Source: an uncultured Candidatus Rokubacteria bacterium
GTDB lineage: Bacteria > Methylomirabilota > Methylomirabilia > Rokubacteriales > DASRDR01
Direction: 5' to 3'
NCBI GenBank assembly: GCA_963805625.1
Contig: CAWDVE010000010.1
Location: 1,440,001 to 1,504,000 of the forward strand
DNA: 64,000 nt
A model generated the notes under the pieces. The model searched no databases and was not told the origin of the DNA. It worked only from the letters and a program-made list of their open reading frames with translations. The position numbers and the translations under genes are program-made. Of the stretch, positions 52,281 through 63,371 are shown piece by piece. Positions within the stretch are counted from its first letter, which is position 1. Each line of letters starts with the position of its first letter.

Positions 52281-53362
52281 TCAGGCCCGGGCTCCCGGAT
52301 CGAAACCCGCCAGGAAGAAGGCGGCGACGTGGTGCATTTGACAGAAGCTGCCCGCGCGGATCAGGGCGAGAACGGCCTCAGGCGCGACGTACTCGACGGC
52401 CACCCCGGGCTCCGGAACGAACTCCGCCAGGGGTCCGGATGCCTCGACGCGGAAGACGTGCTGGACGAGCTCGAGGCGGCCCGCGTCGGGGCGGAGCCCG
52501 CCGAGGTAGGTGACGCGCTCGGCCCGGAGACCGGTCTCCTCCAGGAGCTCCCGGCGGCACGCGGTCTCCGGATCCTCGCCCGGATCTTTCAGGCCCGAGG
52601 GCAGCTCCCACGTGTACTGCTCGACCGCCGGCCGGAACTGCCGGACGACCGCGACGCGCCCGTCCGGCGTCCGCGCGACGGCAACCACCCAGTCGAACGG
52701 CCCGAACGCGTGATAGGTGTCCGGCGCGCGGTTCGGGACGAACTCGACGTCCTTCTCGATGAGGGTGGTCCACGGCGACAGCTGACGCACTCGCCGCGCC
52801 ACGATCCGGGCCCGCTCGCCCCACCAGGTCTCGAGGAACCGCGCCGTCGGCTCCCGGCCCCGCACCCGGGCGACATCGGCAGGTGTCCGCCCTTCCGCGG
52901 TCCGCATCGACGTCTCGGCCCCGCGCAGGAGGAGCCGTGTCACCAGGGAGAGCTCCCCCCGCTCGCCGCGATGTGGAGCGGCGTGAAGCCTCCGCCGTCC
53001 ACGGCGTTCACCTCCGCGCCCGCCGAGAGCAGGCGGTCCACCAGGTCGAGCCCGGCGGTGCCTGCCAGGCCCGCGTGAAGTGGCGTGTTTTCCAGCGGGT
53101 TCCGGGAGCGAGCGCGCGGATCCCCGCCGTGCGCGAGAAGCAAAGCGACGGCCGGTGTCTCGCCGAAGTGAGCCGCGAGATGGAGCGGCGTCCAACCATC
53201 GCCCGCGTGCGTGGAGACGAGTCCTGGCGCTTCCCCGAGGAGCGCGGCAAGGCGGGTGACGTCGCCCGCGGCGGTGGCCTCGAACGCGTCGAGCACGGCG
53301 CCGCGGGCCCGCAGGAGGCCGAGGACGGCCGGCACGCGGTGGTAGCAGGCCAGGAGCGCGGG
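52281..53362 (-). pseudogene. Ankyrin-repeat-NUDIX hydrolase fusion; own N-terminus missing; -1 frameshift in a G6 run (52955-52960)
   Basis: GWTPLHLAA, NTPLHA, GFTPLHIAA, GRTPAD ankyrin repeats; Nudix box GLKDPGEDPETACRRELLEETGL. A seventh G restores LHIAASGGELSLVTRLLLRGA. Confidence 0.75.
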
Positions 53363-53614
53363 CGTCGTGCCCTCGAACAGGCCGAGCTGGTTGGCCTGGC
53401 CCGTCGCGATGGTCAGGACGAGCATGCCGTGGGCGATCCGGCCCTTCATGGGGCCCTGCCGCGCGGACTCCTCGTCGGTGTGGAGGGGATTGAAATCGCC
53501 GGAGAGCCCGGCGAAGCGGTCCACGGTCCCCTCGGTCACGGTGCGCGCGGCCGTCGTGAAGGCCTCGCCCACCGCGAACTCCTCGCAGTGCCGGCCGCGC
53601 GGGACGTAGGTCAT
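53363..53614 (-). pseudogene. MaoC-family dehydratase, N-terminal ~84 codons only, fused in frame to the ankyrin gene
   Basis: FAGLSGDFNPLH..RIAHG hydratase motif; the C-terminal hot-dog strands are absent after LFEGTT. Confidence 0.8.
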
Positions 53615-54765
53615 CCGAGACTCGGGGGGCGCTCGAGGTCGCGCCCGATGATGACCCGCAGGATCTCCGACGTCCCCCCGCCCCAGAGCAGGAAGCGAGC
53701 GTCGCGGAAATAGCGCTCGATGGGGTACTCGGTCGCGAAGGAGTAGGACGCGAAGATCCGGGAGGCCTCGTCACAGATCCGGTTCGCGGCCTCGGAGGCG
53801 AAGAGCTTGGTCATCGCGGCCTCCCGTGTGACCGGCAGCCCCTGGTCGATGGACCATGCCGCGTGGTAGACGAGCAGGCTCGCCGCGTGGAGCTGGGTGA
53901 GCATGTCGACGAGCCGGAAGGTCACCGCCTGGTGCTCGCCGATGGGCTTGCCGAACGTTACGCGCTCCTTCGAGTAGCGGAGCGCGGCGTCGTAGGCCGC
54001 ACGGCCGAGGCCGACCGAGAGGGCCCCGGTCATCACCCGGATCTCCGAGAGGATGCCCCCCACCTTCTCGACGCCGCCGGTCTCGCCGCCGAGGAGGTGC
54101 TCGTCGGGGACGACCACGTCGTCGAGGATGATCTCGCCCGTCGCCGACGCCCGCACGCCGAGCTTCTCGATCCGCTTGCCGAGCGTCACGCCGGGGAATT
54201 GCCGGTCAACCAGGAACAGCGCGATGTGCTTCATCCCGCGCTCGGGAGACGTCTTCGCGCAGACCGTCAGCATGTCGGCGACGGGAGCGTTCGTGACCCA
54301 CGTCTTTGTGCCCTTGAGGCGCCAGCCGCCCTCGACGCGCTCGGCCCTGGTGGCCAGGTTGCCGATGTCGGAGCCCGCGTTCGGCTCCGTCAAGGCGAAC
54401 GTGGCGACCTTCTCTCCCCGAAGCGCGGGGACGAGGTAGCGCTCGCGGAGCGCGTCGCTCCCGTACTTCCAGATGAAATGCGTCCCCATGAGGCTCTGCA
54501 TCGCGGCGAGCGCGGCGACCGACATCGATCCGCGGCCCAGCTCCTCGGCGAAGAGGCAGTAGGTCACGAAGTCCGCGTCCGCCCCGCCGTAGGCCTCGGG
54601 ATAGCGAAGGGCGAGGTAGCCTTGCTTGCCCAGGCGCCGGAAGAGCGCGCGGGGAAACTCCCCCGCCTCGTCGATCTCGTGAGCGACCGGCGCCACCTCG
54701 GCGTCCACGAAGCGGGCGACGGCCCGCCGGAACTCCTCCTGCTCTGCGCTCAGCCGGAAGTCCAT
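53611..54765 (-). CDS. Acyl-CoA dehydrogenase
   Basis: FALTEPNAGSD, GTKTWVTN, KLGVRAS, RVTFGKPI, IERYFRDAR..GGGTSEI. Confidence 0.95.
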   Translation of the reverse strand: MDFRLSAEQEEFRRAVARFVDAEVAPVAHEIDEAGEFPRALFRRLGKQGYLALRYPEAYGGADADFVTYCLFAEELGRGSMSVAALAAMQSLMGTHFIWKYGSDALRERYLVPALRGEKVATFALTEPNAGSDIGNLATRAERVEGGWRLKGTKTWVTNAPVADMLTVCAKTSPERGMKHIALFLVDRQFPGVTLGKRIEKLGVRASATGEIILDDVVVPDEHLLGGETGGVEKVGGILSEIRVMTGALSVGLGRAAYDAALRYSKERVTFGKPIGEHQAVTFRLVDMLTQLHAASLLVYHAAWSIDQGLPVTREAAMTKLFASEAANRICDEASRIFASYSFATEYPIERYFRDARFLLWGGGTSEILRVIIGRDLERPPSLG

Positions 54766-54935: not shown

Positions 54936-56300
54936 TCACCTCTTGACCTTCGGAAGGCCGGCCAGCGCCGCCTTCACCTGCTCCGCGGGGTACTCGAAGT
55001 CCTCGAGCTTGCCCGTCATGTAGCGCTCGTAGGCGGAGAGGTCGAAGTGGCCGTGGCCACAGAAGTTGAACGCGATGACCTTCCGGTCGCCCGAGGCCTT
55101 GCAGCGCAGCGCCTCGTCGATGACGACCCGGATCGCGTGGGCCGCCTCGGGCGCCGGCAGGAACCCTTCCGCCCGCGTGAACGTCAGCGCCGCCTCGAAG
55201 GTGGGGTTCTGGTGGACGGCCACCGCCTCGATCACCTTGTGGTCGTACAAGGCGCACACCAGGGGCGCCATGCCGTGGTAGCGGAGGCCCCCCGCGTGGA
55301 TCGGCGCCGGGATGAAAGAGTGACCGAGCGTATACATCTTGACCAGTGGCGTCATCTGCCCGGTGTCGCCGAAGTCGTAGACGTACTCGCCCTTGGTGAG
55401 GCTCGGGGCCGCGTGGGGCTCGACGGCGATGACGCGAAGGTCCTTCCGCCGCCCGCTCAGCTTGTCCTGGAGGAAGGGGAACGTGAAACCGCCGAAGTTC
55501 GAGCCGCCCCCGATGCAGCCGACGAGGATGTCCGGGCGGTCGCCCGCCATCTCCAGCTGCCGCTGGGCCTCCAGCCCGATGACCGTCTGGTGCGTCAGGA
55601 CGTGGTTCAGCACGGAGCCGAGCGAGTACTTCGTATCCTCCCGCTGGGCAGCCTCCTCGACCGCCTCCGAGATCGCCATGCCAAGGCTTCCCGGCGAGTG
55701 CGGGTCCTTTGTGAGCGCCGCGCGGCCGGCCGCCGTCTCGCGAGACGGGCTCGCCACCACCTTGCCGCCCCATGCCTCCATCATGATGCGCCGGTACGGC
55801 TTCTGGTCGTAGGAGACCCGCACCATGTAGACCTTGCACTCGATCCCGAAGATCTGACAGGCAAATGACAGCGCCGAGCCCCACTGCCCCGCTCCCGTCT
55901 CCGTCGTGATGCGCCGGACGCCTTCCTGGTGGTTGTAGTAGGCCTGGGCGACCGCGGTGTTCGGCTTGTGGCTCCCGGCGGGCGAGACGCCCTCCCACTT
56001 GTAGTAGATCCGCGCTGGCGTCCCGAGCGCCTTCTCCAGGCGATGGGCACGGTAGAGCGGCGTCGGCCGCCAGAGCCGGTAGACGTCCCGCACGGGCTCG
56101 GGGATGTCGATCCACCGCTCCTGGCTCACCTCCTGCTTGATGATCTCCATCGGGAACAGGGGGGCGAGGTCCTGAGGACCGATGGGCTGGAGCGTGCCCG
56201 GGTGGATCACCGGCGGGAGCGGCGCCGGCAGGTCCGCCTGGATGTTGTACCAGCGGCTCGGCAGGTCCTTCTCGTCTAGCAGGAACTTGGTCTGGGCCAC
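54936..56300 (-). CDS. trpB2: Tryptophan synthase beta chain, type 2
   Basis: [23 protein letters not shown] (PLP Lys), [30 protein letters not shown]; no trpA nearby. Confidence 0.95.
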
Positions 56301-56314
56301 GGGAACCTCCTTGT

Positions 56315-57220
56315 TCAGCCTGGGCGGCGTTGGCCGGGTCGCGCCGGATCCGGGAGAGTAGCCCGCGCGAGCGCGTCCGCGTACGCGTGGCGTCCCGCCT
56401 CGTCAGCGAAGAGATCGTCAGGGATGCGGTGATCGGCGAACTGCCAGAGCCGCTCGGGGTAGCGACGGTCGACGGCCAGCCCGCCACCGAGGCACGCAAG
56501 CGGCCGCGCCCGCTCACGCTCGACCTCGTCCGCGAGCGCCGCTCGCAGCCCGCCGAGCGCCGCGAGCGGCACGGCCAGCCCGAGCACGCGGTACGGCAAG
56601 AGGAAGCGCGTCGACTTCGGCGGTAGGAGCGCCACCTCCGCTCGCCGGCGCACGGCCGGCTTGTCGAGCGCCGGCGGACGCAGGACGACGACGTCCGCCG
56701 CCCCCAGCCACCCGGCGATCGCCTCGTCCTCGACGAGACGCGCCGGACGCCGGTGGCCGTTCCGCGAGACGAGCCGCTCGACCTCGCTCGCCAGGGCGTG
56801 GGGATCCGACGCCTCGGGTCCAGGCCGACCGTAGACCCGATCGCCGTAGTGACAGCGGAGCCCGCCCTCCACACCAGCCTTGAGCCCGAGCGCCCGGCGC
56901 GCGGCGTCGAAGGCGGCCGCCGGCACGCCCTCGAGCACGCGGCACCAGGTTCCGATGCGAACCTCGGGCGACTCGAGGTCGACCTGCTGAATCACGGCGA
57001 AGCGCGCACCGAAATCGCGCGCGAGGACGACGGCGCGATGGCTCCCGTCCAGGATCAGCCCGGATCCGGCATCGACGACGAGCGGCCACGACAGGACGCG
57101 CGCGGCCCCGAGGAGGTCCGCCACGCGGGACTCACCATCCGGGGACGTGGCTTCGTGCGGGCGAAGGTCCCCGAGCCTGGCAACGGCAAGACTCGCTCGG
57201 ACGTCGTCCGCTGACTCCAT
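56315..57220 (-). CDS. ParB/Srx-fold protein resembling the free L-serine kinases SerK/SbnI
   Basis: LRPHE, PLVVD, ILDGSHR, and distal LLPPKSTRF; no HTH. Confidence 0.65.
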
Positions 57221-57275
57221 TGGGCCTCGGCACGTCCTCTACTGGTGTCGGAGAACGGATCCGCGCGCGCGCCGG

Positions 57276-58592
57276 TCAGCGCCCGCGCAGCGCCCGGCGC
57301 GCTTCCTCGGTGGCGTCGCTCTCCGGAAAGTCACGGACGAGCTGGCTCCAAGCCTGCCGCGCGTCGGACTCTCGCTTCTGGGCGCGATAGGCGAGGCCGA
57401 GGCGGAGCAGGGCCTGGGGCGTGTCCTTCCCCTTCGGGGCGAGATCGATGGCCTTCCGGTACTCGAGCGCGGCGCGCTCGAAGTCGCGCGCCGCGTAGTA
57501 CGCCTCGCCGATCCGGAACTGCGCCGACGCGGCGAGTGGGTCCGACGGAAACGTCTGGACGAGCTCCTCGAACTCCAGCACGGCCTGTCCCTGCTCGCCC
57601 TTGCTCCAGTTCTCCATCGCGCGATCGAAGAGGGCACGGGCGGTAGACGATCCCGGCCCGGGGAGGGTCGTCGTCGCCGCCGTGCCGGCCTTGGCGGGGC
57701 GCGGCGGCGTCGCCCCCGCTGGGCGCTCCGGGGCCGCCGTTTTCGGCTCGACGGGAGGCGGAGCGGCCTTCGCCACGCGCGCCGCTTCGTCGGGGGCCGG
57801 GCGAGCCGGGGTCGTGGCGCGAGGAGCGTCCGGCTTCTTCCAGGCCGGGGGCGTGTCGGCCACGCGAGGGCCCGTAGAGTCGACCATGGTCTCGCGCGGA
57901 GGAGCGGGCGCCACCGCTGGGGGCGGTGTCGAGCTCCTGGGGTTGCGCGAGGACCCGAGCGTCGCCGGCGGCGTGAGGCCGGCCCCCGCCGCAGCGCTGT
58001 CCGGCGCGGAGGCCGGCGGCGTGGACTCCTCGGCGGGACGGGGGGCCGATGACGCGGCCGGCGACCGCGCGGGCGATCCGCTTCGGGCCCCGGACGCCGA
58101 TGTCGACGCAGAGTCCAGGATCCGGGCGAGCTGGCTCTCGACCCCCGTGAGGCTCATCTCGACCCGGCGCAGTACCTGGCCCAGCTCGGTCGCTCGCCTC
58201 TCCAGGAGGTCGATGCGCCGGGCCTGGGCGTCGAGCACCTCGACCTGGCGCTGGAGGTCGTGACGGGACGACGCCTCGATCGCCTTCTGGACGGCGTCGA
58301 ACTCCGCTCGCGTCTCCTGCGCGACACGATCCGCGTGCTCCGTGCCGGCGCGCTGCGAAGCCTCCACGCGCGTGCGGAGCTCGGCGACATCGGCGCGGAG
58401 ACGGTCCACCTCCTGGCGCAGAGCAGCGGGAGAGTCGGGCGGCGGCGCCTTCGTCTCGTCCGCCGGCTTCGCGCCGCGCCCGCAGCCGCCGCTCAGGCCG
58501 GTCACCAGGACCACCGCGACCGCAACAGCCGTGTCGAGCCATCGTCGCGACCGGTCGCGACCTCGGATCTCTCGTGCCTGGGCCGATTTCAC
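57276..58592 (-). CDS. CpoB/YbgF-like lipoprotein (coiled coil, Pro/Ala linker, TPR)
   Basis: LSGGC lipobox; FPSDPLAASAQFRIGEAYY, PQALLRLG, FPES. Start approximate. Confidence 0.8.
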   Translation of the reverse strand: MKSAQAREIRGRDRSRRWLDTAVAVAVVLVTGLSGGCGRGAKPADETKAPPPDSPAALRQEVDRLRADVAELRTRVEASQRAGTEHADRVAQETRAEFDAVQKAIEASSRHDLQRQVEVLDAQARRIDLLERRATELGQVLRRVEMSLTGVESQLARILDSASTSASGARSGSPARSPAASSAPRPAEESTPPASAPDSAAAGAGLTPPATLGSSRNPRSSTPPPAVAPAPPRETMVDSTGPRVADTPPAWKKPDAPRATTPARPAPDEAARVAKAAPPPVEPKTAAPERPAGATPPRPAKAGTAATTTLPGPGSSTARALFDRAMENWSKGEQGQAVLEFEELVQTFPSDPLAASAQFRIGEAYYAARDFERAALEYRKAIDLAPKGKDTPQALLRLGLAYRAQKRESDARQAWSQLVRDFPESDATEEARRALRGR

Positions 58593-58775
58593 GCGCACAG
58601 TATCGCACCGTAGCACCCGCGCCGTTTCAGGGTCAACCAACGGGGGCCCCGCTGCTGTTGCCAAATGGAAATGTCACCTCCCCTAACTGGCACCCGAGCG
58701 GCTCAGCAACGGCTGCGGCAGTCGGGTGGCTGCCGCGGGTGGCCGCCCGGCGCGGCGCCGCGGTAAGCTGGCCAT

Positions 58776-60296
58776 GTGGCCGTCGCGACGCCGTCCCGGC
58801 TCCGCGTCCGACACCCGCTCCCTCCGGCGCGCTGGCCGACGCGCGAGGAGGCCGAGCAGGCCCGCTGGTTCTCCCCGGTCCGTCTCGGCGTCCACTGCCT
58901 GGCGGCCGACCGCACGTGGGTGCCGGCGATGGTCCCCTGGCGGGCGACCGAGGACGGCCACGTCACCCCCGAGGTGCTCGAGTGGTACGGCCGCTTCGCC
59001 GAGGGCCAGCCCGGTGTGCTGGTCGTGGAGGCAACCGGCATCCGCGACGTACCGAGCGGCCCGCTCCTCCGCATCGGCAGCGACCGTTTCGTCCCGGGGC
59101 TCCGGCACCTCGTCGAGACGGTGCGGGAGCGGAGCGAGGGGCGGACGCGCCTCTTCATCCAGGTCATCGACTTCGTCGCGGTCCGGCGGCGGCCGCAGCC
59201 GGCGACATTCTTCGCGCGCTATCTCGAGATCGGGGACGACCTCCGTCGCCGCCTGGCCGAGGCGCTCGACGACGCGCGCTGGCAGGACGCGGCTGCGGCG
59301 CCGGATGCCGAGGTGCGGGCCCGCCTGGCCGAAGCCGGACGCTCCCTCGTCGAGGCCGTTCTCAGCGCGCGCGAGCGGGAGTCGCTCGACTACGGCTACC
59401 GCGAGCGGGTAGGCGACCTCCACCTGCCGCACATCCGCGACCTGCCGCGGGTCCTGCCGGGCCTCTTCGCCGAGGCCGCGCAGCGGGCGCGCGAGGCGGG
59501 CTTCGACGGCGTCGAGCTTCACTACGCGCACGCCTACACGATGGCCTCGTTCCTCTCGCGGATGAACCGGCGGACTGACGGCTACGGCGGGGCGCGCCCG
59601 GAGCGGGCGCGGCTTCCGCTGGAGGTGCTCCACACGGTCCGGAACAAGGTCGGCGACGACTACGTGGTGGGCATCCGCTACCTGGGCCACGACGTGGTGG
59701 CAGGCGGTAACGACCTCGACGACGCGATCTGGTTCGGGCTTCGCTTCGCCGAGGGTCGGGCGGACTACCTGTCGGTGTCCAAGGGCGGCCGATTCGAGGA
59801 CGCCCGGCAGCCCAAGGTCGGCGAGGCGGTCTACCCCTACACCGGTGAGTCGGGCTATGAATGCATGCCCACCGTGATGTCGGACGCGCGAGGCCCGTTC
59901 GGCCGCAACGTGCCGCTGGCGGCCGCCATCCGGGCCGGCCTCCGGGCGGCGGGGCACCAGCTCCCGGTGGTCACGAGCGGCGGCGTGTCCACCTTCGACC
60001 AGGCGGAGGGCATCCTGGCCCGCGGGGAGGCGGATATCGTGGCGGCCGCACGCCAGACCCTCGCCGATCCGGACTGGTTCCGGAAGATCCGGCTGGGCCA
60101 CGGGCACCTCGTCCGTCGCTGCGAGTTCACGAACTACTGCGAGGGCCTGGACCAGCGGCACAAGCAGGTGACCTGCAAGCTGTGGGATCGCGATCTCGAC
60201 CAGGATGACCCGGGTGTGACGCTCGCGAGCGACGGGCGACGCCGGCTCGCGCCTCCGTCCTGGCGGCCGCCGGCCGCAGCGGGCGGAGAATCCTGA
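58776..60296 (+). CDS. NADH:flavin oxidoreductase (old yellow enzyme family)
   Basis: PAMV, AGFDGVELHYAHAY, NRRTDGYGG, ARQTLADPDW, C-terminal Cys motif. Confidence 0.9.
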   Translation: MAVATPSRLRVRHPLPPARWPTREEAEQARWFSPVRLGVHCLAADRTWVPAMVPWRATEDGHVTPEVLEWYGRFAEGQPGVLVVEATGIRDVPSGPLLRIGSDRFVPGLRHLVETVRERSEGRTRLFIQVIDFVAVRRRPQPATFFARYLEIGDDLRRRLAEALDDARWQDAAAAPDAEVRARLAEAGRSLVEAVLSARERESLDYGYRERVGDLHLPHIRDLPRVLPGLFAEAAQRAREAGFDGVELHYAHAYTMASFLSRMNRRTDGYGGARPERARLPLEVLHTVRNKVGDDYVVGIRYLGHDVVAGGNDLDDAIWFGLRFAEGRADYLSVSKGGRFEDARQPKVGEAVYPYTGESGYECMPTVMSDARGPFGRNVPLAAAIRAGLRAAGHQLPVVTSGGVSTFDQAEGILARGEADIVAAARQTLADPDWFRKIRLGHGHLVRRCEFTNYCEGLDQRHKQVTCKLWDRDLDQDDPGVTLASDGRRRLAPPSWRPPAAAGGES

Positions 60297-60400
60297 CGCG
60301 CGGCTCCGCCGGAGAGCCGGCGCACGATGCGGAATCTCGACAGCCCAAGGGGGCGCCCCGATGGACGTTGGCGTCATCCCGGGGCACAAGGAGATCCTCG

Positions 60401-60739
60401 ATGGGGAGCTACTACGCGTCCGAGCACCTCGGGAAGTTCGGAACCATCGCCCAGGGGAGCCCGGACCTTGCCGAGAAGTTCTTCGCCTGGTACAACGCGG
60501 TCTTCGCCGAGGGCGCCCTCAGCGAGCGCGAGAAGGCGCTGATCGCGCTGGGCGTGGCCCACGCCGTCCAGTGCCCCTACTGCATCGACGCGTACACGAA
60601 GACGTGTCTCGAGAAGGGCTCCGATCTCGAGCAGATGACGGAAGCGGTCCACGTGGCCTCGGCCATCCGGGGAGGCGCCTCGCTGGTCCATGGCGTCCAG
60701 ATGCTCGAGCACGCGCGGCACGCGGGGATGGCGGAGTGA
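60401..60739 (+). CDS. AhpD/CMD-family peroxidase-like protein of ArsS clusters
   Basis: REKALIALGVAHAVQCPYCID, GGASLVHGVQM; AAGGAG RBS. Confidence 0.88.
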   Translation: MGSYYASEHLGKFGTIAQGSPDLAEKFFAWYNAVFAEGALSEREKALIALGVAHAVQCPYCIDAYTKTCLEKGSDLEQMTEAVHVASAIRGGASLVHGVQMLEHARHAGMAE

Positions 60740-61848
60740 CGCCACCGGGGACAGGCGCCGCCGACCCCGACCTCGCGACCCTGGCCGCGGGCCCCAAGGG
60801 AACGCGAAGCCTCCGAGCCCGGGACTCCCCGCTCGCCTCGACTGCGGCTCAACTCCGGCTCCTCGAGACGCTGCCGCTCCCCGGCGGGGATTTCGACGCA
60901 ACCCTCGGAGCGTGTGGATGGACCGAGCTCAGGCCGGCGCCGCTCGAGATCTTCCAGATCAACGTGGGCCGCCTCTGTAACATGACCTGCCGCCACTGCC
61001 ACGTCGACGCGGGACCCGACCGGCTGGCGGAGAACATGGACCGCGAGACGGTCGACCTCTGCCTCGCGGCCCTCGACCGGACGACCGCGCACACGGTCGA
61101 CATCACCGGCGGGGCACCCGAGCTCAACCCTCACTTCCGCTACCTGGTCGACCAAGCCGTGGCGCGCGGAAAACATGTGATGGACCGGTGCAACCTCACG
61201 ATCCTCCTCCTTCCCCGCTGCGCCGACCTGCCCGAGTGGCTCGCGGCGCGTGGCGTCGAGATCGTATCCTCACTCCCCCACTACCGCCGGTTGAACACTG
61301 ACGCCCAGCGGGGTGAAGGCACCTTCGACCTGTCGATCGAGGCGCTGAGACGGCTGAACGCCGCGGGCTACGGGCAGGGCGATCCCAGACGCCGGCTGAC
61401 GCTCGTCAGCAATCCTGCCGGAGCGTTCCTACCCGGCTCGCAGGCTTCGCTCGAGCGCGACTGGAAGGCAGGGCTCGCCCGCCACCACGGCGTCACGTTC
61501 GACCGGCTCTTCACGCTGGTCAACATGCCGATCAATCGCTTCCTCGACTGGCTCGTCGAAAGCGGCAACCTCCAGGAGTACATGGCGCGGCTGCTGGCGA
61601 CCTTCAACCCGGCGGCGATCCCGGGTCTCATGTGTCGCAACACGATCTCGGTCGGCTGGGACGGGACGCTCCACGACTGCGACTTCAACCAGATGCTCGA
61701 CCTCCCGGTCGAGGCTCCTCCCGGTCGCCGCCCTCACGTGCGGGACCTCGACCCCGCCTGGCTCGAGACGCGCCGGATCCGCACCGCGCGTCACTGCTTC
61801 GGGTGCACGGCGGGCGCCGGGAGCTCCTGCGGCGGCGCCACGACGTGA
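60736..61848 (+). CDS. arsS: Radical SAM protein, ArsS family (arsenosugar biosynthesis)
   Basis: QINVG.LCNMTCRHCHVDAGP, DITGGAPELN, NMPINRF, MCR..DCDFNQML, HCFGCTAGAGSSCGG. Confidence 0.88.
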   Translation: MTPPGTGAADPDLATLAAGPKGTRSLRARDSPLASTAAQLRLLETLPLPGGDFDATLGACGWTELRPAPLEIFQINVGRLCNMTCRHCHVDAGPDRLAENMDRETVDLCLAALDRTTAHTVDITGGAPELNPHFRYLVDQAVARGKHVMDRCNLTILLLPRCADLPEWLAARGVEIVSSLPHYRRLNTDAQRGEGTFDLSIEALRRLNAAGYGQGDPRRRLTLVSNPAGAFLPGSQASLERDWKAGLARHHGVTFDRLFTLVNMPINRFLDWLVESGNLQEYMARLLATFNPAAIPGLMCRNTISVGWDGTLHDCDFNQMLDLPVEAPPGRRPHVRDLDPAWLETRRIRTARHCFGCTAGAGSSCGGATT

Positions 61849-63371
61849 GCGATTCGCCGAGGCTGCTCCCGGACGACGTCCACAACCGCACGCTGATCCA
61901 GAACGTCCACCCACCCGGCTGGGAGAACCCGGAGCCGGCCCGGCGGTACAACCTCGTGGTGGTCGGCGCGGGGACGGCGGGCCTCGTGAGCGCGGCGGGC
62001 GCCGCGGGCCTCGGCGCCCGGGTCGCCCTGGTCGAGCGGCACTTCATGGGCGGCGATTGCCTGGTCACGGGCTGCGTCCCCTCGAAGGCTGTGATCCGCT
62101 CCTCACGCGTCATCGGCGAGATCCGGGAGGCCGCGACATTCGGCGTGAAGGTTCCCGGCGGGGTGGTGGTCGACTTCGGCGCCGTCATGGAGCGGATGCG
62201 ACGGGTCCGCGCGGAGATCAGCCCGCATGACTCGGCCTGGCGCTTCAGCCGGGAACTCGGCGTCGACGTCTTCCTCGGCGACGCGGCATTCACCGGGCCC
62301 GACACGTTGGCCGTCGCCGGCCGGACCCTTCGCTTCGCGAGGGCCGTCGTCGCCACCGGAGCGCGGCCCGGACACCCGCCGATCCCCGGCCTCGCCGAGA
62401 CCGGATTCCTCACGAGCGAGACCGTCTTCGAGCTGACCGAGCGGCCCGGTCACCTGGCCGTGTTGGGCGGCGGCCCGATCGGGTGCGAGCTGGCCCAGGC
62501 GCTCCGTCGTCTCGGCGCGGAGGTGACCCTCCTGAGCGACGTGGCGCAGCTCCTGCCGCGCGAGGATGCGGACGCGGCCGAGATCGTCCGGCAGGCGCTC
62601 CTCCGGGACGGAGTGCGGCTGATCCTCGGCGCCGAGATCGCCAGCGTCACGCGCGAGGCGACGCGGAAAGTCCTCCGCTACCGGGAGAGCGGGCGGGAGG
62701 GCACCGTGGCGGCCGATGAGATCCTCGTCGCGGCCGGCCGCGTGCCGAACGTCGAGGGGCTCGGGCTCGAGGCAGCAGGCGTACGGCACGCGCGCGAGGG
62801 CATCGTCGTGGACGACCACCTGCGGACGACGAACCGCCGGGTCTACGCCGCCGGTGATGTGTGCCTCGGCTGGAAGTTCACCCACGCCGCCGGCGCCGCC
62901 GCGCGGATCGTCGTCCAGAACGCGCTCTTCGGGCTCGCCGGCCGCCGCCGGGTGAGCCGGCTCGTCATGCCGTGGTGCACGTACACGGACCCGGAGGTGG
63001 CGCACGTCGGGCTCAGCGAGCGCGAGGCGGGCGAGCGCGGGCTCGGGATCGACACGCTCGTGCGCCGCCTCGAGGACGTGGACCGTGCGCTCACCGACGG
63101 CGAGACGGAGGGCTTCGTCAAGGTGCACGTACGGCGCGGCACCGACCGGATCGTCGGCGCGACCATCGTCGCCCGGCGGGCCGGCGAGATGATCAGCGAG
63201 GTAACGCTCGCCATCGTCGCCGGGGTCGGGCTCGGCCTGCTCTCGGACGTCATCCACCCCTACCCCACGCAGGCCGAGGCGGTGCGCCACGTCGCCGATC
63301 AGTACCAGCGGACGCGATTGACGCCCTTCGTGCGCGCGGCGCTCAGGGCCTGGCTCAGGTTGGCGCGGTGA
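61845..63371 (+). CDS. Pyridine nucleotide-disulfide oxidoreductase (mercuric-reductase-like, not MerA proper)
   Basis: GAGTAG, GGDCLVTGCVPSK, GGGPIG, IHPYPTQAE; no C-terminal Cys pair. Confidence 0.88.
   Translation: MSDSPRLLPDDVHNRTLIQNVHPPGWENPEPARRYNLVVVGAGTAGLVSAAGAAGLGARVALVERHFMGGDCLVTGCVPSKAVIRSSRVIGEIREAATFGVKVPGGVVVDFGAVMERMRRVRAEISPHDSAWRFSRELGVDVFLGDAAFTGPDTLAVAGRTLRFARAVVATGARPGHPPIPGLAETGFLTSETVFELTERPGHLAVLGGGPIGCELAQALRRLGAEVTLLSDVAQLLPREDADAAEIVRQALLRDGVRLILGAEIASVTREATRKVLRYRESGREGTVAADEILVAAGRVPNVEGLGLEAAGVRHAREGIVVDDHLRTTNRRVYAAGDVCLGWKFTHAAGAAARIVVQNALFGLAGRRRVSRLVMPWCTYTDPEVAHVGLSEREAGERGLGIDTLVRRLEDVDRALTDGETEGFVKVHVRRGTDRIVGATIVARRAGEMISEVTLAIVAGVGLGLLSDVIHPYPTQAEAVRHVADQYQRTRLTPFVRAALRAWLRLAR

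Follow-up and report, generated by a model that had tools for sequence, protein, structure and literature searches.

At the centre of the locus are two adjacent genes on the reverse strand of the window, as we call the whole 64,000-nucleotide stretch of Rokubacteria DNA that was analysed (source assembly 7.27 Mb, 99.9% complete and 6.3% contaminated). The first (56315..57220), unannotated before this analysis and without a Pfam match, has an ATG start and encodes a 301-residue SerK/SbnI-like ParB/Srx-fold protein, a candidate free L-serine kinase referred to below as the kinase. The second, trpB2 (54936..56300), has a GTG start and encodes a 454-residue stand-alone TrpB2-type PLP enzyme with its PLP lysine in an SHK motif (K112). 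Between the TGA of the kinase gene (56315-56317) and the GTG of trpB2 (56298-56300) there is a 14-nt gap that contains an AAGGAGG ribosome-binding site (56306..56312, reverse strand), 5 nt before the GTG; this arrangement is as the initial annotation gave it, and a similar purine-rich site is found in most of the linked loci described below. The three kinase motifs that it had singled out were also found, all on the reverse strand: PHE at residues 21-23 (P21-H22-E23; 57152..57160), LDGSHR at residues 57-62 (D58-G-S-H-R62; 57035..57049), and PPKSTRF at residues 200-206 (P200-P-K-S-T-R-F206; 56603..56623).

A CpoB/YbgF-like TPR gene (57276..58664, reverse strand), kept in the same genus and not in other carriers, lies 55 nt upstream of the kinase, and an acyl-CoA dehydrogenase gene (53611..54765, reverse strand), which is also found 3' of trpB2 in family members that have no kinase, lies downstream of trpB2. 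Scans for promoters and terminators returned none of either, there was no Rfam match, and no tryptophan-sensing leader was found in the 55 nt upstream of the kinase. The RNA runs yielded contigs of relatives only, a small share and without transcript or strand information; one of these contigs skips 56310-57452, the pattern expected of a kinase-less relative. Elsewhere in the window, the N-terminal part of a MaoC protein runs in frame into ankyrin repeats (52281-53614, reverse strand), with a NUDIX-like frame following in another frame; this looks like a deletion scar or an assembly error, since the two parts are separated by ~1.6 kb in relatives. A 506-residue ORF without Pfam or NCBIfam match (58776-60296, reverse strand) lies upstream of the cpoB-like gene in relatives as well, and its ELHYAHAY stretch resembles, in our estimation, flavin oxidoreductases of the old yellow enzyme type. 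Further along (60361-63371, forward strand), Pfam matches indicate a small CxxC protein, a radical SAM plus DUF3641 protein and a pyridine-nucleotide-disulfide oxidoreductase-like ORF, a cluster that we take to resemble arsenic-related ones.

Searched as a single sequence, the kinase gave a faint match to the SerK model NF053625 (E 0.0055; 15.9 bits against a cut-off of 380), on which score membership of the SerK equivalog proper was rejected, and a phmmer search of the PDB returned E 0.68. Sequence searches retrieved 90 homologues, 44 of which were aligned with the query to build a first profile of 45 sequences (alignment A1). With this profile, SerK/PF0380 and SbnI chains were the only PDB matches below E 0.05 (1.9e-12 to 6.6e-10), and with a wider profile of 61 rows the E-values reached 6e-38 for SerK and 1e-24 for SbnI. 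An AlphaFold2 model (pLDDT 91.1, pTM 0.87) led to the same family: all nine Foldseek matches at E <= 0.001 were SbnI or SerK/PF0380 (E 6e-14 to 3e-11) and extended over 233-247 columns, whereas ParB, Noc and Srx chains aligned over only ~75-125 columns at E >= 0.05. The modelled fold is a ParB/Srx domain with an inserted mixed alpha/beta domain and no HTH. Both the lack of an HTH and the SerK/SbnI assignment proposed in the initial annotation are thus borne out, the latter by fold, profile and residue comparisons alike. A canonical ParB (CTP clamp) was considered and rejected, given the short ParB/Noc alignments and the lack of a Pfam ParB or HTH match; membership of the DUF1015/SerBK family was likewise rejected, there being no PF06245 match in the kinase or in this genome.

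The residue-level agreement with SerK and SbnI is extensive. By alignment, E23 corresponds to SerK E30 (PDB titles name E30A and E30Q mutants), D58-R62 to D69-R73 (DGHHR in SerK, DGVHR in SbnI), W92 to W102, and K202, T204 and R205 to K221, T223 and R224; the last motif reads SPKTTRH in SerK and PAGVTRF in SbnI, and F206 of the kinase stands in place of SerK H225, as it does in SbnI. We take E23, like SerK E30, to be the catalytic base of the HE motif, DGxHR to act in nucleotide/Mg binding, and the equivalents of W92, K202, T204, R205 and F206 to bind serine; the serine-site residues that might have been missing therefore appear, as judged by alignment, to be present. H22, E23, D58, G59, H61, R62, W92, K202, T204 and R205 are invariant in 45/45 rows of A1, whose members range down to 26% identity, and F206 is found in 44/45. 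Together these comparisons, which are of sequence and of a model, make it likely that this SerK/SbnI-like gene encodes a free L-serine kinase. The dN/dS of the kinase is 0.16-0.40 against each of the 10 relatives tested, as compared to 0.02-0.09 for trpB2 (10 pairs), and GC3 is 0.85 for the kinase versus 0.94 for trpB2. Given 90 homologues and this dN/dS range, the ORF is a real gene in GC-rich DNA, and it is under purifying selection that is weaker than that on trpB2.

The identity of the partner is, by sequence, unambiguous: the enzyme reaches 744.5 bits with NF009057, where the cut-off is 366, and 667.9 with TIGR01415, where it is 518.85, and aligns over its full length to solved TrpB2-type chains. 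Its R340 (GGLRYHG; codon 55281..55283, reverse strand) stands where TrpB1 of the same genome has Asp (AGLDYPG), and this TrpB2 arginine reportedly sets the preference for phosphoserine. The Asp-to-Arg difference between TrpB1 and TrpB2 is stated in the accessible text of Merkl 2007 (PMC1854888). TrpB2 use of O-phospho-L-serine goes back to Busch 2014, as cited in PMC11917138, and a preprint (10.1101/2024.05.08.593210) quotes a high affinity for indole in Thermotoga TrpB2; according to this preprint, a Bacteroides TrpB2 alone gave a growth benefit to an E. coli trpA mutant cross-fed by wild type. By analogy with the family, O-phospho-L-serine and indole are predicted to be the substrates of the present enzyme.

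We then consider how widely the two genes travel together. In a set of 61 genomes (this one and 60 relatives), the kinase is found in 15: this genome, 12 of 14 same-genus relatives, G023 and G058; in a wider set of 236 genomes from the phylum it is found in 16. The adjacency is not a peculiarity of this genome, as trpB2 directly follows the kinase in all 16 loci from the 61-genome set (among them one truncated kinase, in G004, and two loci interrupted where their contigs stop) and also in G231. Across the phylum, 17 of 18 kinase loci lie directly before trpB2, and the exception (L059) is a distant homologue that overlaps a cystathionine beta-synthase-like PLP gene by 4 nt (L059:1-2048). This would be another pairing of a kinase with a PLP beta-substitution enzyme, on a short contig that could be a binning contaminant. 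The genes upstream of the kinase vary among carriers (cpoB-like, or hydantoinase/oxoprolinase in L110 and L112). At close metagenome loci trpB2 is visible in 5 of 11, the other six ending <=216 nt from the aligned part.

The linkage in Rokubacteria probably had one inherited origin followed by losses, because trpB2 is found in 49/61 genomes and the kinase in only 15/61, because a same-genus genome that is 97% complete (G002) shows a clean loss of the kinase, with the cpoB-like gene joined straight to trpB2, and because a TrpB2 tree of 39 rows groups the linked enzymes in a single clade (97/87), together with four unlinked enzymes from genomes with DUF1015. The pair in G231 was possibly gained by transfer. 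Given the loss in G002, the truncation in G004 and a dN/dS above that of trpB2, the kinase is dispensable; the gene pair is real, conserved and dispensable.

Several observations made along the way concern copy number and gene context. One genome (G009; loci L005 and L016) carries the kinase-trpB2 pair twice (identity to the query 90% and 77%) in a bin with 6% contamination, so that a duplication or a mixed bin would account for them. Two close homologues of the kinase (P0056 and P0243) have PRKAT for PPKST and directly follow an NRPS tail (adenylation C-terminus and carrier domain). A search for kinase-TrpB2 fusions among longer proteins gave three matches, all from single contigs, and no true fusion: one was a frame-scrambled read-through into trpB2, another ran into the cpoB-like gene, and the third included an NRPS tail upstream; this outcome carries little weight in either direction.

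The initial annotation had described the pair as a self-contained module with no trpA, operating independently of the SerA/SerC pathway. There is indeed no trpA at the locus, but the genome carries trpB1-trpA on contig C16, a full-length serA behind a serC-like aminotransferase gene, and glyA, and most related trpB2 genes have no kinase beside them, so that the module cannot be called self-contained. A canonical serB was found neither in this genome nor in any of the 61 (0/61). As trpA is present in 58/61 genomes, including 14/15 kinase carriers, and as this genome holds trpB1-trpA and serA with a serC-like gene, the kinase-trpB2 pair is an accessory route beside normal TrpAB. Independence from SerA was overstated for this genome, with its serC-like/serA pair, but may hold in sister genomes that have no serA at its locus. 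After rechecking with the C-terminal part, serA was not found in 6/15 carriers versus 4/46 non-carriers. In G008, G009, G013 and G014 it is absent at its locus from contiguous DNA: the serC-like gene of G014 is joined to the next gene, G013 retains a remnant, and G008 and G009 share a common replacement block. In G010 the contig ends after a further ~500 nt without serA, and G007, at 71% completeness, is uninformative. Both G002 and G004, in which the kinase is lost or truncated, keep serA. Other 2-hydroxyacid dehydrogenases, with 27 matches in this genome, could substitute for serA.

A further distribution pattern involves DUF1015 (PF06245), a gene of which complements E. coli serB and is a proposed serine kinase (SerBK; GapMind 2026, PMC13759103 section 7). 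It is found in 37/61 genomes, comprising 0/15 kinase carriers and 37/46 non-carriers, and was also not found in G231; the contrast amounts to roughly three lineages rather than 16 independent cases, and the genomes of several carriers are incomplete. Related genomes are not independent, and Fisher values for the distribution of kinase, DUF1015, serA and trpB2 therefore overstate the associations. Each of the 10 genomes in which serA is missing has one or the other kinase type (9/9 among those with trpB2), and trpB2 is found in 46/52 genomes with either kinase type and in 3/9 with neither (G002, G031 and G041). The genome of the CBS-linked distant homologue (L059) holds both a kinase homologue and DUF1015. 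At 2 of 20 DUF1015 loci (G025 and G045) both flanks are adjacent in this genome, and the rest differ, which is no more than suggestive of an in situ loss of DUF1015 here. The kinase apparently stands in for DUF1015 in carriers. Such displacement is typical of two enzymes with one function and strengthens the serine-kinase assignment. The exclusion of DUF1015 and the loss of serA support a phosphoserine-making role for the kinase, and a general role in serine metabolism is allowed as well.

Beyond this order, the pairing was seen again among the sampled loci, but rarely. One of 38 distant metagenome loci (L087) has the order serS-trpB2-kinase with a 4-nt overlap, and a search of 401 Thermoproteota genomes with the L087 kinase gave 11 loci, including a kinase (L222, 37% identical) that also follows trpB2. 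From the kinase side, trpB2 was a neighbour in 0/90 Thermoproteota loci among the matches listed (90 mostly full-length loci picked from 150 listed of 320 matches). From the trpB2 side, a short kinase-like gene lies downstream in 2 of 110 Thermoproteota loci (L251 and L374) drawn from 277 matches, many of them from genomes that are probably kin; one of the two was preselected, leaving 1/109 blind, which by a rough estimate would be expected from chance in about one trial out of eight. In Bacteroidota, a kinase-like neighbour was found at 0/31 trpB2 loci. The archaeal pairings involve two other kinase subfamilies, with the order reversed relative to Rokubacteria (trpB2 before the kinase), and in a 56-row kinase tree the three trpB2-linked groups lie apart, with weak deep nodes. 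Tree position and the opposite gene order are what suggest an independent recruitment of kinases to trpB2.

The neighbours of the wider kinase family, and of archaeal trpB2, point to serine metabolism. Among the 90 listed Thermoproteota loci, neighbours were serA-like in 19, serC-like in 12 and a PALP-type enzyme in 6, and other wider-family kinase loci adjoin glyA, serB, serS or a CBS-like gene. A serA-like gene lies <=1.5 kb from trpB2 in 18 of the 110 Thermoproteota trpB2 loci, with a class V aminotransferase gene too in 11 of the 18 (loci with a short serA-like dehydrogenase are L255, L310, L311, L316, L323, L325, L335, L339, L345, L354, L362 and seven more). Six of these serA-like dehydrogenases, when scanned, scored best on TIGR01327, below its cut-off, and for three class V aminotransferases the serC model was outscored by other models of that class. 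Such gene sets beside trpB2 would represent a second, biosynthetic source of phosphoserine, of which no description was found in the literature searched.

Three other arrangements were observed. In one, which is archaeal, a SerK-like gene is followed by a ~500-residue conserved protein and then by a phosphoglycerate-mutase-like (PF10143) gene (e.g. L071:4815-6329; also L068-L072, L077, L121-L123, L190, L228 and L232, from Thermofilaceae/Thermoprotei where named); the middle protein (505 residues) has no Pfam, NCBIfam or ESM Atlas match, and a new serine-to-glycerate-phosphate step is possible. In another, a SerK-like gene directly precedes an ACT-ACT-HAD SerB-like phosphatase gene, placing kinase and phosphatase in one operon (L086, L090, L098 and L099, two of them preceded by glyA or a GcvT-GlyA fusion). 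The third is a conserved archaeal gene order, rpS17e, SerK-like gene, phosphoribosyltransferase, with rpS17e in 29/90 listed loci (L073-L076, L081-L084, L089, L091, L124, L142-L160, L182-L197, many of them).

We consider it probable that the Rokubacterial gene encodes a free-serine kinase that supplies phosphoserine to the adjacent TrpB2 for indole salvage, a reading based on the observed fold match, residues, gene order, TrpB2 identity, Arg340 and distribution patterns. With E23 acting as the base, the kinase would phosphorylate the hydroxyl group of serine at the expense of ATP or ADP; TrpB2 would bind the resulting phosphoserine through R340, eliminate phosphate at PLP and add scavenged indole to give tryptophan. 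We infer kinase activity, phosphate donor, co-transcription and flux to TrpB2, every chemical step being drawn from family knowledge. A physical complex of the two proteins would not be required. The kinase would matter when SerA yields little phosphoserine, either because serine is plentiful or because serA has been lost, and it probably covers in addition the general serine/phosphoserine function proposed for DUF1015 in relatives. A more ambitious version, to which we give somewhat less than an even chance, is that TrpB2 repeatedly recruits a phosphoserine source, be it one of three SerK/SbnI-like subfamilies or serA plus a class V aminotransferase, and that the Rokubacterial kinase represents a new subfamily of bacterial free-serine kinases, having displaced DUF1015/SerBK and let sister genomes drop serA, in which it serves as the main serine-phosphoserine link and defines a two-enzyme route from serine and indole to tryptophan.

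The same displacement also feeds a different account, in which the protein is a housekeeping serine kinase that replaces DUF1015/SerBK (serine to phosphoserine to 3-phosphoglycerate) or the missing SerB and sits beside trpB2 by descent or through loose co-regulation. The complementary distribution of the kinase and DUF1015, the complementation of E. coli serB by DUF1015 and its proposed kinase role (PMC13759103, section 7), the lack of canonical serB in all 61 genomes, and the serA, serC, serB and glyA neighbours, rather than trpB2, of most wider-family members are all consistent with it. However, all 17 Rokubacterial loci of the genome set with downstream DNA adjoin trpB2 and not serC or serA, and these include distant carriers with other upstream genes; the kinase persists in genomes that no longer have serA, whose loss removes SerB-like and catabolic routes alike; and GlyA is an alternative source of serine. 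As a replacement for the TrpB2-feeding role we regard the housekeeping account as unlikely, while noting that the two are compatible and not mutually exclusive.

It is improbable that the pair acts on other substrates, either a hydroxy amino acid different from serine or a nucleophile different from indole, to give a product other than tryptophan. The low identity of the kinase to tested kinases would leave room for this, as would the variable third position of DGxHR (S, N, T, M or A), a C-terminal extension of ~30 residues that is special to the kinase's own clade, the presence of TrpAB in the genome and the lack of visible tryptophan-type regulation, but TrpB2 is well above both cut-offs with full-length alignment to solved chains, the surroundings of the pair show no conserved genes for tailoring, transport or natural products, and SerK is described as specific for free serine in the accessible text of PMC5120207. 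Even less probable is a non-catalytic or decaying relic, such as a nucleotide sensor or passenger inherited with trpB2: the gene is lost or truncated in two same-genus genomes and shows weaker selection and lower GC3 than trpB2, yet the catalytic-motif residues do not vary among 45 homologues with identities as low as 26%, dN/dS stays below 0.41 in 10/10 comparisons, and the model has a pLDDT of 91.

TrpB2 enzymes are widespread and reportedly require phosphoserine, whose source when SerA is absent or inactive had no genomic answer, the accessible text of Merkl 2007 (PMC1854888) giving no partner genes and no conserved trpB2 neighbourhood other than trp operons. If the preferred reading, a kinase that feeds TrpB2, is true, free-serine kinases would serve one more downstream product, the third, and would occur in an uncultured soil lineage that is abundant. 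The mutual exclusion of the kinase and DUF1015 also provides independent comparative support for the proposal that DUF1015 is a serine kinase.

Among known systems, the best structural match is SbnI of Staphylococcus, which acts in staphyloferrin B synthesis (PDB 6nr6, 5ujd, 5uje; E 5.9e-14, TM 0.72-0.75 by target length). The two proteins share the HE, DGxHR, Trp and TRF motifs at 16% identity, whereas SbnI has Gly in place of Lys202 and is partnered with SbnA rather than TrpB2; there are no siderophore genes at the Rokubacteria locus. SbnI is also credited with a heme/regulator role. Phosphoserine made by SbnI is redundant with the phosphorylated pathway and feeds the PLP enzyme SbnA (PMC12414870, in the text accessible), so that in both cases, by analogy, a fold-type II PLP beta-substitution enzyme would be fed by a kinase that runs in parallel with the phosphorylated serine pathway. 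SerK of Thermococcus kodakarensis (TK0378; PDB 5x0b-5x0k; NF053625), which feeds CysK, has the same fold (E 1e-12) at 18-20% identity, but the kinase has Phe for SerK His225 and ~60 extra C-terminal residues, and is bacterial; its third motif is mixed, with Lys as in SerK and Phe as in SbnI. The accessible text on SerK reports that clear bacterial homologues were not found and mentions neither tryptophan nor TrpB (PMC5120207). DUF1015/SerBK (PF06245; PMC13759103) shares HE, DGxHR and PxKST with the kinase, is related to SbnI, and occupies a complementary set of Rokubacterial genomes; however, the likeness is at the level of BLAST-detected motifs only (E 0.003), the lengths differ (438 vs 301 residues), and the section consulted describes it with serA/serC, not trpB2. 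TrpB2 itself resembles stand-alone enzymes of the trpB2_o type (PDB 4qys, 6hte, 6hul) in passing the cut-offs, in having Arg at the TrpB1 Asp position, and in lying outside a trp operon in a genome with trpB1-trpA, and it differs from the trpB2 genes of Merkl 2007 (PMC1854888, as far as its accessible text goes) in its dedicated-looking kinase neighbour. As the initial annotation supposed, no description of a serine kinase paired with TrpB2 was found in a full-text literature search, whose coverage mostly excludes subscription papers. By analogy, the pair would extend the kinase-plus-PLP-enzyme logic of SbnI-SbnA and SerK-CysK, with the pairing to TrpB2 as the new element.
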